DNA of 64,000 nt. Source: Methanocaldococcus indicus (GTDB lineage: Archaea; AGJL01; Methanococci; Methanococcales; Methanocaldococcaceae). Where the stretch lies: NCBI RefSeq assembly GCF_049554935.1, contig NZ_CP186926.1, positions 96,001 to 160,000 of the forward strand. The letters run 5' to 3'. The notes below the pieces were generated by a model. The model worked only from the letters and a program-made list of their open reading frames with translations. It did no database searches and was not told the DNA's origin. A program made the translations under genes and the position numbers. Of the stretch, positions 10,385-53,575 are shown piece after piece (the first letter of the stretch is position 1; each line of letters opens with the position of its first letter).

Positions 10385-11086
10385 GACACTGTCAAGTTAA
10401 CGACTTCAACCAATTGTAGAACATCATGAAACTTTTAATCCAGCTAACAACTGTATCGAATTTGCTGTTATTAGGAAACCTATTATAAAATGCTTTAGTT
10501 CTTCGTTTGAGTAGTGAGAAAAAGCTTTCTACACAATTTCTCAGTCCGAATCGGACTCTTTCAAATTCTAAACCCAATCTTTGCAATGCCCACGGATACC
10601 ATCTTCCACCATCGACCAAAATCTTCGGCTTATTAGAGCAAAATTTTAATATGCTCTTAACGAATAATATAGTATCGAGGTAGTTTCTTGTTTCAGAAAT
10701 ATAAACTCCCAAGCACTCTTTCGATTCAACATCAATAGCAGACCATACGTAAATAACTTCATTTCCAATCTTTAGTTTGGTCTCATCGATTGCAATTGCG
10801 TATCTTTCCTTTCTTTCAGGTTCGTTTAAAACATCTTTAATCTTGTGATAATAAGTCCTAACCGACTCATGGCTTATACTTTCGAATTGGGAACGAAACA
10901 AACTTACCTTCCTCAACGATAGTCCAAGATAATACAAAATCCCAGCTAAGATTTTAACTTCTATCGACTTCTTATTCCTTTTAAAAATCTTCTCCTCTTC
11001 GATTCTCTCCTTTAAGACTTCTATCGTGAGCTTCATATTTTATTATTTTTTATCAATTATTAATAAAAGCTTAACTTGACACTCTC
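10385..11086 (-). mobile_element. IS6-family insertion sequence, 702 bp, with 16-bp imperfect terminal IRs and a 7-bp flanking direct repeat
   Basis: Left end GACACTGTCAAGTTAA (10385-10400) vs reverse complement of right end GAGAGTGTCAAGTTAA (11071-11086), 14/16 match. ACTCTAT at 10378-10384 and 11087-11093. Confidence 0.92.
10392..11036 (-). CDS. IS6-family DDE transposase
   Basis: IAIDETK…WSAID…LVDGGRWY…NCVESFF DDE signature; intact 214-aa ORF whose stop lies inside the IR. Confidence 0.92.
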
Positions 11087-17994: not shown

Positions 17995-18004
17995 TAAACA
18001 ATAA

Positions 18005-18013
18005 ATTATATAA
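18005..18013 (+). promoter_or_regulatory. Putative TATA box driving the structured rps6e leader
   Basis: ATTATATAA with A-rich upstream flank, about 30 nt before the GC-richer segment. Confidence 0.45.
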
Positions 18014-18043
18014 ACTATATCTTTATATTCTTAGGTTGTGCTA

Positions 18044-18158
18044 TTGTCCTGAGCTTAAAAGCTTGGGACTGGTTGATGAGCTAAATGGAGCTAATCTATC
18101 CCTTGCCCCTTTGGGGATGGATTAGCTATGAAGTTTAGTGAAACTGAAAAGGGAGACA
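18044..18158 (+). ncRNA. Putative structured RNA (5' leader of rps6e or independent sRNA)
   Basis: GC-richer island in an AT-rich spacer; 10-bp hairpin 18046-18069; 14-bp stem 18089-18102/18114-18127; TGATGA at 18074-18079 and CTGA at 18144-18147. Confidence 0.7.
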
Positions 18159-18190
18159 AAAAATAAAAAAATCTATTTTTGGTGATTTAA

Positions 18191-18586
18191 ATGCCAACAG
18201 CAAAATTTGTAGTAGCAGACCCAAAAACTGGAAGATGTTATCAAATAGAAGCAGATAATACTCCATTAGTAGGAAAAAGAATTGGAGAAGAATTTGATGG
18301 GAAAATATTAGGATTAGAAGGTTATAAGTTAGTTATAACTGGAGGAACTGATGACAGTGGATTTCCAATGAGACCAGATATCCATGGAAGTAGAAAAGTT
18401 AGAGTTTTATTAAGTGCTCCACCAGGATTCCATCCAAGAAGAAAAGGAGAAAGAAGAAGAAAAACAGTAAGAGGAAATACAATTGCTCCAGATATTGTTC
18501 AAATAAACTGTAAAGTTGTAGAATATGGAGAAAAATCAATTCCAGAATTGTTAGGTTTAGAAGAAAAAACTGAAAATAGTGAATAA
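18191..18586 (+). CDS. rps6e: 30S ribosomal protein S6e
   Basis: [23 protein letters not shown] motifs. Confidence 0.96.
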
Positions 18587-44091: not shown

Positions 44092-45642
44092 TTATGGCCA
44101 AGTTATTAGTTTAGGAACTTCTGGGAGTTTTTTAATTTTTTTCTTTATTATTGGATGCCAATCATCAAAGTTAAATCCATATTGAGAGAGATAACCAACA
44201 ACCCATCTTGTTAATCCATATCCTGTACATCCTGTCCAAACTTTTCTATTCTTATAATCTTTAATTTTAAATCCTTCCACAAAGTGAGTTCCATGGACAT
44301 TGGCAGATGTTACTGCCACGCCTTTTTTTTCATTGTATTTCTTTATATAGTAAGGTAAAGCTAACCTCATCTCATACTTTGGGACATCTGGAAACTCTAT
44401 ATCTCTTTCCTCTTTTTTTCTACCTTCTAAATAAAATGGGTCATCTCCCACCTCTACCCAATACTCTAAATCTAATTCCTCAGCTAACTCTTCTCCTACT
44501 TTTAAAGTTTTGTCTCTTATTTCTTCAACTACTTCTGGTTTTCCAATCCAAATACACTCTACTCTTAAAAATTCATTTACTCTATCTAATCCTCTTGCTC
44601 CACCACCTTCCCATCTATATGTCCATCCACTTCTATCAAAAAACATTATTGGTTTATCAACATCTATAACCTCTTTCTCAAACAACTGATAGAATGGCTC
44701 ACATTGTGCAGGAGCTAAAACATAACTTGGGTCTCTTAATAAATTTTTTAATTTTTGTATTGGTATCTCTTTTTTAATTATCATCTCATTAACAAAGTCT
44801 TCAAAAAGTTCAGGCTCTCTTTTTGGAGGTGAAACATAGTACATTCCTTCTGGTAAGCCCTCCAAATACCTCATCTTATACATAACTTCTAATGGTATTA
44901 GCTTAGGTAGTAGAACTTCTACAAAACCTATCTTTTTAATTTTTTCAACTAATAACTCTTCAAAAGCTCTTAATAAGGATGTTATTGGTGGAAGATATAT
45001 CCACTGTCCTCTTCCAGGAAACTTTTTAACCCATCCAAGTTTTTCAGCTACATCAGTTGGGTCTTCAAAGAACTTAAACTCTCTACTTGGTTTATATTCT
45101 TTAACAACTGTTCCAGGAGGAATCTTACAAACCTTTGATGTTAAATCCTCTTTCTCTAATTCTTCTCTAACAAATTTTATAGCTCTATCTATAATGTTTC
45201 TTTTTAAATCTCCCTCTTCTAAATTTTCAAAAATTAATATTATCTTGTTATCTAATATCTCACTTTTACATTCTGGGACATTTAATTTTTTGAGATTTTT
45301 TATTTTATTATCTTCAATCTCAATAATATATTTATCTACAACAACCTTCCTAACTCCAATTTTAAAATCTTTTCCTAATTTTTGAGCTAATGCTTTTTTT
45401 AATCTTATTATAGCATCATGTGCCCTACTATATCTCCCAGAGACAATATTTAAAAATAGTTCTTTTCCACAAATATTATAATCAACTATTTTAGATGCTT
45501 CTTCCTCTTTACCTTTTGGAACACCTTTTAAAAATAACTCAGATGAATTTTTTAAAATCTCCTCAATTGCTGCTTTTACTTCTTCATTATCAATATCTTT
45601 ACTAAAAATTATTTTTCCATTTAAATTAAATTTCATCTCCAT
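44092..45642 (-). CDS. serS: Serine--tRNA ligase, methanogen (type 2) form
   Basis: [14 protein letters not shown]…[17 protein letters not shown]-terminal TWP. Confidence 0.93.
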
Positions 45643-45840
45643 ATTTAACCCATATCTTAGTTTTTGTCTAAGGATAAAATAAATTTAACAAATATATACC
45701 TTTTTATTATAAATTTGTATATTTAAATATATAAATATAAAAAATAATATTATCAATGTAATATATAACAATTATTATTAAACAAACTAAAAATAGCCAT
45801 ATTCTTTATTATTTTATTTTTTAGCTAACCGTTCATTTTG

Positions 45841-45879
45841 GGCCGGACATAAGCCCTTAGCGCCCTTTCAGTGTCTGGA

Positions 45880-45893
<14 letters not shown>
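45841..45893 (-). other. 3' strand of the 23S pre-rRNA processing stem (BHB); partner at 48849-48901
   Basis: Long inverted repeat with GGTG/CACT 4-bp helix flanked by AAA and GAA 3-nt bulges. Confidence 0.88.
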
Positions 45894-48865
<2,972 letters not shown>

Positions 48866-48966
48866 AGATTTCACCAGGGCGCTAAGGGCTTATGCCCGGC
48901 CCTCATCTTTTATCGGGCCCTTCACCCACAACTTTTTAAAGTTGTGGGCTGCATTTATTTTTTTAG

Positions 48967-49039
48967 TGGACCCGGTGGGATTTGAACCCACGGCCTCCGG
49001 CTTGCAAGGCCGGCGCTCTCCCAGCTGAGCTACGGGCCC
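48967..49039 (-). tRNA. tRNA-Ala (TGC) in the 16S-23S spacer; CCA not encoded
   Basis: GGGCCCGTAGCTCAG…TTGCAA…GGTTCAAATCC…GGGTCCA cloverleaf. Confidence 0.96.
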
Positions 49040-49112
49040 ACTAATCCTATGAGGCAAGCCCCTCGCTTGGGTTTTCGGTGTCCCTACTGTAAGCCAGCCC
49101 AAATTTTTTCTC

Positions 49113-50590
<1,478 letters not shown>

Positions 50591-50633
50591 TAAGTGGAGT
50601 ACGGCCGCAAGAAAGGAAAGACCTTTCTTGCGG

Positions 50634-50684
50634 GGGCTGGCTTACAGTAGGGATTTCACCAGCCCAAGCGAGGGGCTTGCCTCA
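50634..50684 (-). other. 5' strand of the 16S pre-rRNA processing stem (BHB); partner at 49050-49100
   Basis: Inverted repeat with GGTG/CACC helix and AAA/GAA bulges. Confidence 0.88.
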
Positions 50685-50821
50685 GCCCCAACCCTTTTGG
50701 ATTGGGGACGCATTTCAATTGCATCCAATAGCACAAACCTGATTTTTGTAATGTTTTTAGGATTAAAACAATGTGGGTTATATTTAACATAGTAGTTATA
50801 ACATAACACTTACAAAAACTA

Positions 50822-53575
50822 ATGACACAAAAAAATAAGATAGTGAAATATATGATTTTAATAATAGCTGAAAAGCCAAGTGTTGCAAAAAAAATTGCTA
50901 ATGCATTAGGAAAAGCTAAAAAAAAGATAATGAATAATGTTCCATATTATGAAGTAGAAAGAGATGGAAAAAAGATTTGTGTAGCAAGTGCAGTAGGACA
51001 TCTATTTACATTAATAGAAAAAAACAAGGAATTTGGAAAGTATCCTGTTTTTGATATTAAATGGGCTCCTGCTTATATAGAGAAGGGAAAAGAGTATGTA
51101 AAAAATTATATTGATACATTAAAGGAGCTTTCAAAAGATGCTGAAGAGATATATATTGCAACAGATTATGATTTAGAGGGAGAGCTTATAGGATATCATG
51201 CATTAAAATACTGTTGTGGGAGAGATAAAGCTAAGAGAATGATTTTTTCATCATTAACTAAGAAAGAACTAATAAAAGCTTTTGAGAATCCTAAGAGTAT
51301 AGATTATGGACTAGTTGATGCAGGAGAGTGTAGGCATATAGTAGATTGGTATTTTGGAATTAATTTATCAAGAGCTTTAATGAACTCATTGAGGGCTGTA
51401 AATAGATGGAAAGTTTTAAGTGTTGGGAGAGTCCAGGCCCCAGCTTTATCCTTCTTAACTGAAAGAGAAAAAGAAATAAAAAACTTTAAGCCAAAACCAT
51501 ATTGGATTTTATATCTCCTATTACAATCATTAAAAGCTTTACATAAAAAGGAAAAATTTTGGAATGAAGAAGAAGCTAAAAAGATATATAACAAAATTAA
51601 AGATGAAAAATATGCTGTTGTAAAAGATGTAAAGAAAACTAAAAAAGAGATAAAGCCTCCTGTTCCTTATGATTTAGGAACTTTACAAAGAGAAGCTTAC
51701 AGTTATTTTAAAATCTCACCTAAAGAGACACAAGATATAGCACAAAAGCTTTATGAGAAAGGACTATGCATACATCCAGAGACACTAATACTATTACCTA
51801 ATGGAACTAAGAAAATTAAGGAGTTAGATGATGAAGGAGAAATATTATGTTTAAATAACAGCTTAAAACTAACAAAATCCAAATATAAACTTTTAAAAAG
51901 AACTGTGAAAGAAAAACTTATAAAAATAACTTTAACTGATGGAACTGAACTTATTACTACAAAAGAACATCCAATTTTGGTTTATAGAAACAAGTTAATA
52001 TTTATCCCAGCTGAAAAACTAAAAGAAAATGATAAAGTAGTAAAATTAAAATTATCAAATAATAAAGGATTAAATTTGGATAGATTTTCATCTAATTATA
52101 TGGATAATAATTTAAAGAGGATAGTAGATGGAGATGTTTATATTCAAAAAGTTAAAAAAATTGAAGAGATTGATTATGAAGGAGAAGTTTATGATTTAGT
52201 AGTTGAGAAATATCATAACTTTATAGCAAACAATATAGTTGTGCATAACTGTTCTTATCCAAGGACATCAAGTCAAAAACTACCTAAGGATAATGAATAC
52301 TTAAAATCTATCTTAAAAATTTTAGAAAAAAAACCTGAATATAGCTTATTTGCCAAGGAAATCTTAAAGAACAATTTAAAACCTGTTGAAGGTAAAAAGG
52401 ATGATGCACATCCTGCTATACATGTTGTAGATATTCCAAAAGAAGAACTTTCAGAAAAAGAAAAGAAAATTTATGATTTAATAGCAAGAAGAACCTTAGC
52501 ATCTTTCTATTACCCAATGATTAGAGAATATATAAAAGCAATTTTAGATGTAAAAGGAGAAGAGTTTATACTTTCAGGTGCTAAAACCATAGAAAAAGGT
52601 TGGTATGAAATTTTTCACTTTCCAAGATATGATGAGATAAATCTCAACCTTAAAAAAGGTGAAAAGGTAAAGATTGACAAAGTTGTTTTAGAAAAGAAAG
52701 AGACACAACCTCCTAAAAGATATACATTATCATCTATAATTAAAGAGCTTGAAAAAAGACAGTTAGGGACAAAATCCACAAGAGCAGAGATTATTGATAA
52801 ATTAATAAAAAGAGGATATGTAAAAGAGGAGAATGGAAGTCTTTATGTTACTGAATTGGGAGAGAGTGTAGTAGAAACTCTAAAAAAGTTTTGTCCTGAA
52901 ATAGTTGATGAGAAATTAACAAGAGACTTAGAGGAAAAATTGGAGAATATACAATATCAAAAAGTTAAAAAAGATAATGTTTTAAAAGAAACTGAGCAAA
53001 ATCTTAGAAAAATTTTGGAAGAGTTTAAAAACAAAGAGAAAGATGTTGGAAAATTCTTGTCTGAGAAAGTAGATAAAGATGTTAAAGTTGTTGGACAGTG
53101 TGAATGTGGTGGTGATTTAATTTTAATTAGGCATAAAAAAGGAAGGTTTATTTCATGCTCAGAAAAATGTGGAAAAACATACTCTCTACCAAAAAAAGGA
53201 AAAATAGAAATTACTAAAAAGAAGTGTGAAGAGTGTGGCTCACCAATATTAAAAATAGAAAATAAGGAAGTTTGCATAAATCCAGAATGTCCATCCAAAT
53301 CTAACATAAAGGAAAATAAAGAAAATATAGAAGAAAAAGATGAAAAAGTTTGCCCAAAGTGTGGCTCAAAATTGATTATAAAGAAAGGGATATATGGAGA
53401 GTTTTATGCCTGTCCAAACTATCCAAAGTGTAAATACACAGAGAGTATAAAAGAAGTTGTTGGTAAATGTCCAAAGTGTGGCTCAAACCTAATTATAAAA
53501 GTGGGAAAATATGGAAAATTTATTGGATGTGAGAACTATCCAAAATGTAAATATACTGAAAAAATTAAGAAATAA
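50822..53575 (+). CDS. topA: DNA topoisomerase I (type IA) with intein and C-terminal Zn ribbons (start likely 50852)
   Basis: IAEKPS, ATDYDLEGE, SVGRVQ, SYPRT (catalytic Tyr), LGTKSTRA motifs. Confidence 0.96.
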   Translation: MTQKNKIVKYMILIIAEKPSVAKKIANALGKAKKKIMNNVPYYEVERDGKKICVASAVGHLFTLIEKNKEFGKYPVFDIKWAPAYIEKGKEYVKNYIDTLKELSKDAEEIYIATDYDLEGELIGYHALKYCCGRDKAKRMIFSSLTKKELIKAFENPKSIDYGLVDAGECRHIVDWYFGINLSRALMNSLRAVNRWKVLSVGRVQAPALSFLTEREKEIKNFKPKPYWILYLLLQSLKALHKKEKFWNEEEAKKIYNKIKDEKYAVVKDVKKTKKEIKPPVPYDLGTLQREAYSYFKISPKETQDIAQKLYEKGLCIHPETLILLPNGTKKIKELDDEGEILCLNNSLKLTKSKYKLLKRTVKEKLIKITLTDGTELITTKEHPILVYRNKLIFIPAEKLKENDKVVKLKLSNNKGLNLDRFSSNYMDNNLKRIVDGDVYIQKVKKIEEIDYEGEVYDLVVEKYHNFIANNIVVHNCSYPRTSSQKLPKDNEYLKSILKILEKKPEYSLFAKEILKNNLKPVEGKKDDAHPAIHVVDIPKEELSEKEKKIYDLIARRTLASFYYPMIREYIKAILDVKGEEFILSGAKTIEKGWYEIFHFPRYDEINLNLKKGEKVKIDKVVLEKKETQPPKRYTLSSIIKELEKRQLGTKSTRAEIIDKLIKRGYVKEENGSLYVTELGESVVETLKKFCPEIVDEKLTRDLEEKLENIQYQKVKKDNVLKETEQNLRKILEEFKNKEKDVGKFLSEKVDKDVKVVGQCECGGDLILIRHKKGRFISCSEKCGKTYSLPKKGKIEITKKKCEECGSPILKIENKEVCINPECPSKSNIKENKENIEEKDEKVCPKCGSKLIIKKGIYGEFYACPNYPKCKYTESIKEVVGKCPKCGSNLIIKVGKYGKFIGCENYPKCKYTEKIKK
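51767..52249 (+). mobile_element. Mini-intein (161 aa) in TopA, no homing endonuclease
   Basis: Starts CIHPETLILLPNG; block B TTKEHP; ends VYDLVV…HNFIANNIVVHN with Cys at +1; removal restores EKGL-CSYPRT. Confidence 0.93.
53351..53560 (+). repeat. Tandem duplicated Zn-ribbon coding unit in topA (117-nt period)
   Basis: TG(C/T)CCAAAGTGTGGCTCAAA at 53351 and 53468; both units CPKCGS…G-YG-F…C-NYPKCKYTE. Confidence 0.8.

Follow-up and report, generated by a model that had tools for sequence, protein, structure and literature searches.

What is the island of higher GC that lies in front of the gene for ribosomal protein S6e in Methanocaldococcus indicus? The window analysed here is a stretch of 64,000 nucleotides from this archaeon (contig NZ_CP186926.1, positions 96,001 to 160,000 of the forward strand; genome G000 in what follows). 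Within it, the next gene after the island is rps6e (18191-18586, + strand, 131 aa; Pfam Ribosomal_S6e, 156.9 bits), and the ORF list of the window holds no + strand ORF of at least 40 aa at the island itself. A first-pass annotation, made from the letters alone, had proposed a structured + strand RNA in front of rps6e, either a ribosomal leader or an atypical C/D-box RNA. That such an RNA is present is borne out by its folding and by covarying helices in relatives. The GC content is 0.43-0.48 across 18040-18159 and 0.14-0.30 in the flanks, which agrees with the island in an AT-rich spacer that had been described. For the + strand of 18030-18165 the folding energy is -45.9 kcal/mol (z -4.62), a value equalled by none of 200 dinucleotide shuffles; the z-score for the - strand of the element region is -2.66. 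Furthermore, conserved G.U pairs agree with the + strand, as the annotation had argued: at one pair of hairpin 1, U.G occurs in all 19 sequences compared. The element is a conserved folded RNA of about 115 nt on the + strand, ahead of rps6e.

A multicopy, MITE-like spread and membership of a known Rfam family had both been named in advance as outcomes that would speak against the proposal; neither was found. The locus itself is the sole match in the 1.44-Mb genome, by BLAST as well as by covariance model at E ≤ 0.01, and the element is not a MITE because it is single-copy. Rfam 15, run over the whole window at the gathering threshold, matches rRNA and one tRNA only and nothing at the element. 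When the region around the element is searched at E ≤ 10, only chance-level matches appear, the best being a CRISPR repeat model (E 0.62). Likewise, the 18 orthologous loci, among 32 rps6e-region loci scanned, are without an Rfam family match at the element. The scan is able to detect C/D RNAs, since it picked up sR2 elsewhere in locus L046. A literature search, to whose coverage the older M. jannaschii GC-content screens do not belong, returned no description of this RNA.

The Methanococcales set comprises 40 genomes: 17 of Methanocaldococcus, two of a genus termed g5 and 21 in genera g2, g3 and g4. BLAST with the element returns one orthologue only (genome G008), so that the other relatives had to be located through synteny and a covariance model. 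All 17 Methanocaldococcus genomes contain rps6e, and in each the element lies upstream of it on the same strand. The covariance model R1, built on these 17 sequences, scores them at 67-142 bits and recovers the element in both g5 genomes (63 and 73 bits), where it also precedes rps6e on the same strand. The E-values of R1 and of a further model, R2, are rough; read as such, they give one match per element-bearing genome at E ≤ 0.01, and weak covariance matches only (E 6.5e-4 to 0.65) in the 21 other Methanococcales genomes. Five of these weak matches were inspected and rejected: they lie in what looks like coding sequence or in upstream regions that do not resemble the element. In the 19 of 21 g2-g4 genomes in which the gene was found, the 420 nt upstream of rps6e contain a long leader and no such element. 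In a wider comparison, 80 archaeal rps6e loci were scored with R2: three Methanocaldococcus loci match and the other 77 do not. A metagenome pattern scan proved too loose, yielding at least 117 stretches; 80 loci were scored with R2 and none exceeded 22 bits. The alignment of Methanococcales rps6e-upstream regions with a covariation test, which the annotation had suggested as a check, thus finds the structure kept in 19 genomes of two genera.

As a separate observation, the rps6e leaders of g2-g4 (L087-L105) begin at a promoter, GAAAAAGTATAAAAAT, homologous to the g5 promoter. A motif conserved in their 5′ part, AAGAYGGG...GGAAAC, is similar to the tail after the g5 element. It may represent a remnant, or else a further site of regulation.

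The fold was evaluated on two alignments. A1 is a structure-blind MAFFT alignment of 17 sequences. A3 is a model-fitted alignment of 19 sequences; it leans towards the model and all of its genomes are kin, and with this bias it supports five helices, in which 21 of 31 pairs show compensatory changes and none of 500 shuffles reaches the observed values. Standard pairs occupy 92.8% of 583 cells in A3; shifting the partners by 1-3 columns lowers this share to 37-55%. For the same structure, 87.9% of cells are paired in A1 and 15 of the 31 pairs are compensatory. RNAalifold predicts the same helices when run on the model-fitted A3.

Helix 1, the stem of hairpin 1, has 11 pairs in A3 (99% of cells paired, five compensatory, four invariant). 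Its lower stem is conserved in sequence (GUCCUGA/UUGGGAC), including the tandem U.G/G.U, and its upper stem covaries. Compensatory changes are found in 16 of the 20 pairs of the remaining helices: three of five in helix 2 (87% paired), five of six in helix 3 (94% paired) and eight of nine in helices 4 and 5 together, all counted on A3. Hairpin 2 is also found by folding. The covarying helix 3 upholds the earlier remark that the would-be guide regions are base-paired. In addition, the positions given by the annotation all match the sequence (hairpin 1 at 18046-18069, TGATGA at 18074-18079, a helix of 18080-86 with 18133-39, a long stem of 18089-18102 with 18114-18127, CTGA at 18144-47, and TTGTC/GACAA at 18044/18155). 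The features as now defined are collected in Table 1.

Table 1. Positions of the element and of the signals around it, numbered as in the window; NC, non-canonical.
Feature	Position	Strand	Remarks
Promoter-like AT-rich region with two TATA-like boxes, AAATTATATAAAC and CTTTATATT	18003..18029	+	Read in the sequence
Conserved 5′ single-stranded lead GCUAUU	18040..18045	+	In A1, T11, T13 and T14 invariant, A12 nearly so
Hairpin 1, GUCCUGAGCU-UAAA-AGCUUGGGAC	18046..18069	+	Helix 1
K-turn 1 C-stem, 5′ strand UGGUU	18070..18074	+	Pairs with 18142-18146
K-turn 1 bulged strand	18075..18079	+	Loop G-A-U 18075-77; G1b-A2b 18078-79
Shared NC helix, 5′ strand GCUAAAU	18080..18086	+	Pairs with 18133-18139
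K-turn 2 non-bulged strand	18087..18089	+	3n G18087, G2n 18088, A1n 18089
Hairpin 2 (K-turn 2 C-stem)	18090..18126	+	13 bp, 18090-18102 with 18114-18126; apical loop UUGCCCCUUUG 18103-18113
K-turn 2 bulged strand	18127..18133	+	Loop U-A-U 18127-29; G1b-A2b 18130-31; 3b A18132, 4b G18133
Shared NC helix, 3′ strand UUUAGU	18134..18139	+	Helix 3
K-turn 1 non-bulged strand	18140..18141	+	G2n-A1n, directly abuts the basal stem
K-turn 1 C-stem, 3′ strand AACUG	18142..18146	+	Helix 2; holds most of CTGA
G-rich 3′ tail AAAGGG	18148..18153	+	Complementary to loop 18107-18112 CCCUUU
Conserved U-tract motif TCTATTTTT	18172..18180	+	Candidate partial terminator or processing site
Shine-Dalgarno GGTGA	18181-85	+	Abutted by the U-tract in the window

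Judged by sequence signature, the core of the element is a pair of standard kink-turns (K-turns) which are mirror images and face each other across one shared NC helix. Both show a 3-nt bulge and tandem GA on both strands, and both lie between a Watson-Crick C stem and an NC stem which covary. In K-turn 1, the bulged-strand GA is present in 19/19 sequences after a 3-nt loop that reads GAU in 15, AAU in three and UAU in one. On its non-bulged strand, 1n is A in 19/19 and 2n is G in 17/19; the exceptions are an A in G013 and the mis-aligned G003 row, tabulated as U, where reading by hand gives an A with one extra nucleotide. K-turn 2 has the bulged-strand GA in 19/19 and a GAU loop in 18/19, the window reading UAU. 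As tabulated, its 1n is A in 18/19 and its 2n is G in 17/19 (one A, one mis-gapped GG). When the mis-aligned rows of G003 and G008 are parsed by hand, 1n is A in 19/19 and 2n is G in 17/19, with A instead in G015 and, by that parsing, in G003. Counted by eye, the two GA tandems are 7-8 steps apart, and the direction of one kink relative to the other is thereby set. GAUGA varies at its first G (AAUGA and UAUGA also occur), so that the sheared pairs use the second GA.

These results sharpen the atypical C/D-box RNA of the first-pass annotation. The topology stands, and its UGAUGA-type box does form a K-turn signature. A second K-turn, made by GA at 18088-89 with AUGA at 18128-31, had been overlooked, so there are two rather than one. 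The D box assigned to CTGA at 18144-47 has to be given up: it is unconserved in orthologues, which read GGCAU, GGCGU, GGCUA, AGCCU or AACCA at 18142-18146, and its bases lie within the 3′ strand of the covarying basal stem. The partner of the first box is instead G18140-A18141. The expected binder of both K-turns is L7Ae; the genome encodes L7Ae and a second gene of the Ribosomal_L7Ae family (PF01248).

A further contact may complete the fold. A duplex of 4-6 bp between the apical loop of hairpin 2 and the 3′ tail is possible in 19/19 sequences, and both sides change between lineages: the pairs are CCCUUU/AAAGGG in the window and ACCC/GGGU, CCCC/GGGG or CUCCC/GGGAG elsewhere, and four-pair duplexes form in the loops and tails CCUCC/AGGAG, UCCCAC/GUGGAG and ACCCA/UGGGG. 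In 15/19 genomes the duplex beats all but at most 8% of shuffled tails; in the other four it is no better than 15-60% of shuffles. The alignment gives no consistent column register for this pairing. As it could not enter the column test, we grade the loop-tail pseudoknot as tentative. With one helical turn between the two kinks, the loop of hairpin 2 and the tail would come to lie together. The annotation had also pointed to a competing pairing, TTGTC/GACAA, which would join the tail to the 5′ side of hairpin 1. By eye, this alternative has counterparts in 7/19 sequences and is missing from 12/19, including the whole main clade.

The surroundings of the element bear on how it is expressed; promoter and terminator calls were made by eye. 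Thirteen genomes of the genus share a box, AACCAAAAA(T/C)TATTTAA, at 28-40 nt before the TTGTCC anchor; the g5 genomes read GAAAAAATATAAAAAT. From the archaeal rule of TATA-to-start spacing, transcription would begin near 18037-18040. With the box 28-40 nt ahead of it, the element is expected to start only a few bases from the transcript 5′ end. Downstream, 18/19 genomes carry the putative terminator or processing motif C(T/G)(A/G)TTTT, G015 being the exception. Between element and ATG there are 27 nt in G015, 44 nt in both G000 and G008, and 45 nt in G003; these four genomes must co-transcribe the element and rps6e because the spacer leaves no room for a promoter. In the other 15 (13 of the genus and the two g5 genomes), a TATA-like box (TTAATTTAAAAAT or AAATTAAATTTAA) was seen by eye after the U-tract, about 55 nt before the ATG, in spacers of 99-167 nt in 14 genomes and 405 nt in G038. 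In most genomes, then, rps6e may have its own promoter at this box, and the element would be a separate gene. The 405-nt spacer of G038 (L073) contains extra GC-rich hairpins (e.g. CCACTGCAACCTTCGGTTGCAGGG) that its sister genome does not have, and is possibly the product of an insertion.

Across the 19 genomes, the closest ORF on the upstream side belongs to one of six unrelated groups, from which it follows that the pairing of element and rps6e has survived rearrangements. In g5 the upstream gene is glnA, common to g2 and g4, which are without the element. In the PMC10450193 supplement, MMP1207 (S6e) is listed beside glnA with no start site given. On the other side of the gene, the Rfam family sR2, a box C/D sRNA, is found in G003 directly downstream of rps6e on the same strand (L046:1425-1479, - strand; 55.1 bits, gathering score 42). 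The rps6e gene of this genome therefore has K-turn RNAs on both sides, sR2 directly 3′ and the element 5′.

Which known RNA does this architecture resemble? The archaeal box C/D sRNA shares its box order, strand arrangement, facing NC stems, terminal stem and internal stem-loop. In both, the outer K-turn has its bulged GAUGA strand 5′ and its GA strand 3′, and the inner K-turn is reversed. An ordinary methylation-guide sRNA would account for the box order C, D′, C′, D and for the two K-turns. However, archaeal guides need about 12 nt of single strand between the boxes, whereas the spacers here measure 5-6 nt and are paired to one another in a covarying helix, so that the module cannot guide methylation. 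NGAUGA is present, but NNGA stands in place of CUGA, the D and D′ positions reading GGGA, GUGA or UAGA, and no Rfam C/D family matches even at E ≤ 10. Spacer length and pairing thus refute a guide function, and we give this reading hardly any credence. The element further differs from box C/D sRNAs in that its sheared pairs use the second GA of NGAUGA, in having an extra conserved 5′ hairpin and a 3′ tail, and in its fixed place upstream of rps6e.

The nearest architectural analogue of the module is the 3′ domain of U3 snoRNA. According to PMC5499572, the C′/D and B/C K-turns of this domain are separated by helix 5. U3, as described there, likewise has two Snu13/L7Ae-type K-turns joined via their helix II sides by a short helix, is without methylation-guide function and carries a separate 5′ domain in front. 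The element is far smaller and without counterpart of the U3-specific boxes or of Rrp9, and the pre-rRNA complementarity of the U3 5′ domain was not found for it in the window genome; the likeness is architectural, and homology is not claimed. Two further systems offer partial parallels. As reported in PMC5539422, L7Ae represses its own mRNA via a 5′-UTR K-turn with the same GAU bulge. That l7ae leader resembles the element in its simple K-turn, GAU bulge, tandem G.A and position in the 5′ part of a ribosomal protein transcript. In contrast, it has a single K-turn which abuts the Shine-Dalgarno sequence and controls l7ae, whereas the element has two, lies 27-405 nt from the ATG and precedes rps6e. 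In G000 itself, l7ae follows an Sm-like gene, and its leader (L107:1846-1920, - strand) holds a GC hairpin, GGGCAATCC-CTCC-GGATTGCCC, and then AATGAAGGAGG before the start. In euryarchaeal RNase P RNA, P12 contains two interconnected K-turns that each bind one L7Ae, as described in PMC5499556. There, the NC helix of KT2 is the C helix of KT3 and the tandem runs in one direction, whereas the element places its K-turns head-to-head on one NC helix, with a G.A tandem at either end of it and a separate C stem for each. Lastly, no internal-loop pocket of the H/ACA type was found between covarying helices. Only in G000 and G008 is the element followed by the trinucleotide ACA; elsewhere the sequence there is GUGAA, GAUAA or GCGAU.

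Comparison with ribosomal RNA in the window gave no partner for the element. The strands of hairpin 1 reach at best -18.8 to -23.7 kcal/mol against sense pre-rRNA (window 45600-51100), and the means of the shuffled best values are -18.9 to -21.2. Antisense and mimic matches of the element to the rRNA operon are at chance level only. The best sense match to 16S rRNA is a 9-mer (E 1.8) in a region not familiar to us as an S6e site. The apex of hairpin 2 (18101-18120) is complementary at 18/20 positions to 23S rRNA 47438-47457 (blastn-short E 0.03); this is probably chance, and the orthologue apex differs. The leader of the rRNA operon (50640-50735, - strand) holds GGTTTGTGCTATTGG, very like GGTTGTGCTATTGT of the element, together with a conserved hairpin, GUCCCCAAUCC/GGGUUGGGGC, similar to hairpin 1. 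Elsewhere in the genus this leader reads CACTATAGGATGC, sharing only CUAU with the element; the stretch may be an initiator region. A repeat near window position 10740 (G000:C1:106740, - strand) occurs at no fewer than eight other places in G000 in an identical 60-nt context, and is probably a multi-copy IS element.

How might the element act? The reading that we favour, tentatively and at a little under an even chance, is that the rps6e transcription unit starts with an L7Ae-bound RNP domain, which acts in cis in concert with the U-tract. Positions 18040-18155 would then be a 5′-proximal protein-binding domain of this unit, in which a sequence-conserved hairpin is followed by a guide-less box C/D-like module. 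Each K-turn would bind one L7Ae. The two kinks would fold hairpin 2 back onto the basal stem, where the C-rich loop could meet the G-rich tail. The RNP and the U-tract, 25-45 nt downstream, would set the amount of transcription or translation that reaches rps6e; were the transcript terminated or processed at the U-tract, a stable small RNA protected by the RNP would remain. Feedback by S6e or by L7Ae through the element, as raised by the annotation, is conjecture. We know of no reason for L7Ae to control S6e, which counts against a role in cis. Also against it are the TATA-like box between U-tract and rps6e in 15/19 genomes, and K-turns that lie 27-405 nt from the start codon and not over the Shine-Dalgarno sequence as in the l7ae leader. 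In addition, A replaces G at 2n in 2/19 sequences at each K-turn, the loop-tail duplex is indistinct from many shuffles in the four genomes mentioned, and the helices rest on 19 kindred genomes in a model-fitted alignment.

The same box gives weight to an opposite reading, in which the element is a stand-alone, trans-acting small RNP with its own promoter and a U-tract terminator, binding L7Ae and perhaps Nop5-fibrillarin. Such a particle might serve as a non-guide, U3-like chaperone in small-subunit assembly, its adjacency to rps6e reflecting co-expression. L7Ae-bound archaeal RNAs are typically stable sRNAs, and the lower stem of hairpin 1, with its four invariant pairs, is conserved beyond what pairing needs. 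The U3 3′ domain, preceded by a 5′ domain in PMC5499572, matches the topology. This reading stays in play because a second promoter is probable in most genomes, where a U-tract is followed by a TATA-like box. However, four genomes leave no room for such a promoter, the element adjoins rps6e in 19/19 genomes despite six different upstream neighbours, and in the window the complementarity of the hairpin-1 strands to pre-rRNA is not above shuffled controls. A trans-acting particle is accordingly possible but rather unlikely in our view, and action in cis is preferred over it because the linkage has outlasted rearrangements and, in four genomes, element and gene are bound to be transcribed together. 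A bolder form, an archaeal architectural counterpart of the U3 snoRNP, would be a guide-less particle, its RNA encoded alongside rps6e, with two L7Ae and possibly Nop5-fibrillarin on the head-to-head K-turns, whose opening 5′ hairpin chaperones small-subunit rRNA folding or S6e incorporation. The yeast S6e protein does belong to the U3-containing small-subunit processome; even so, we consider this form quite improbable.

The strict linkage would also suit an autoregulatory leader, in which S6e binds hairpin 1 or the core as a mimic of its 16S site and the K-turns are architectural. Archaeal ribosomal protein feedback via rRNA mimics is known for L1, and the related genera that are without the element keep long rps6e leaders with a conserved 5′ motif. 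The mimicry itself was not found in the rRNA comparison, where the 9-mer is the best 16S sense match, and the probable second promoter before rps6e weighs against this reading as well; we hold it to be improbable. Less credible still is a ligand-sensing riboswitch or another tertiary-folded sensor, in which the K-turns enable the loop-tail pseudoknot as the K-turn of bacterial SAM-I riboswitches enables theirs. The K-turns with a candidate pseudoknot, and the alternative pairing of tail and hairpin 1 in 7/19 sequences, are of the kind expected for such a sensor. Yet the conserved unpaired nucleotides are almost all explained by the K-turn signatures, a ribosomal protein gene offers no obvious ligand logic, and 12/19 sequences do not have the alternative pairing, so that we find a sensor very hard to uphold.

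The phylogenetic range seen here is narrow, comprising two genera. To our knowledge, archaeal K-turn RNAs comprise C/D and H/ACA guides, RNase P RNA, rRNA, SRP RNA and single K-turns in a few mRNA leaders. A guide-less conserved RNA that keeps the full two-K-turn scaffold of box C/D RNAs would be a different case; the scaffold would then be used beyond methylation in archaea, as it is with U3 in eukaryotes. Furthermore, its fixed place before rps6e would offer a system in which to test, in hyperthermophiles, whether L7Ae controls the synthesis of ribosomal proteins or transcription termination.
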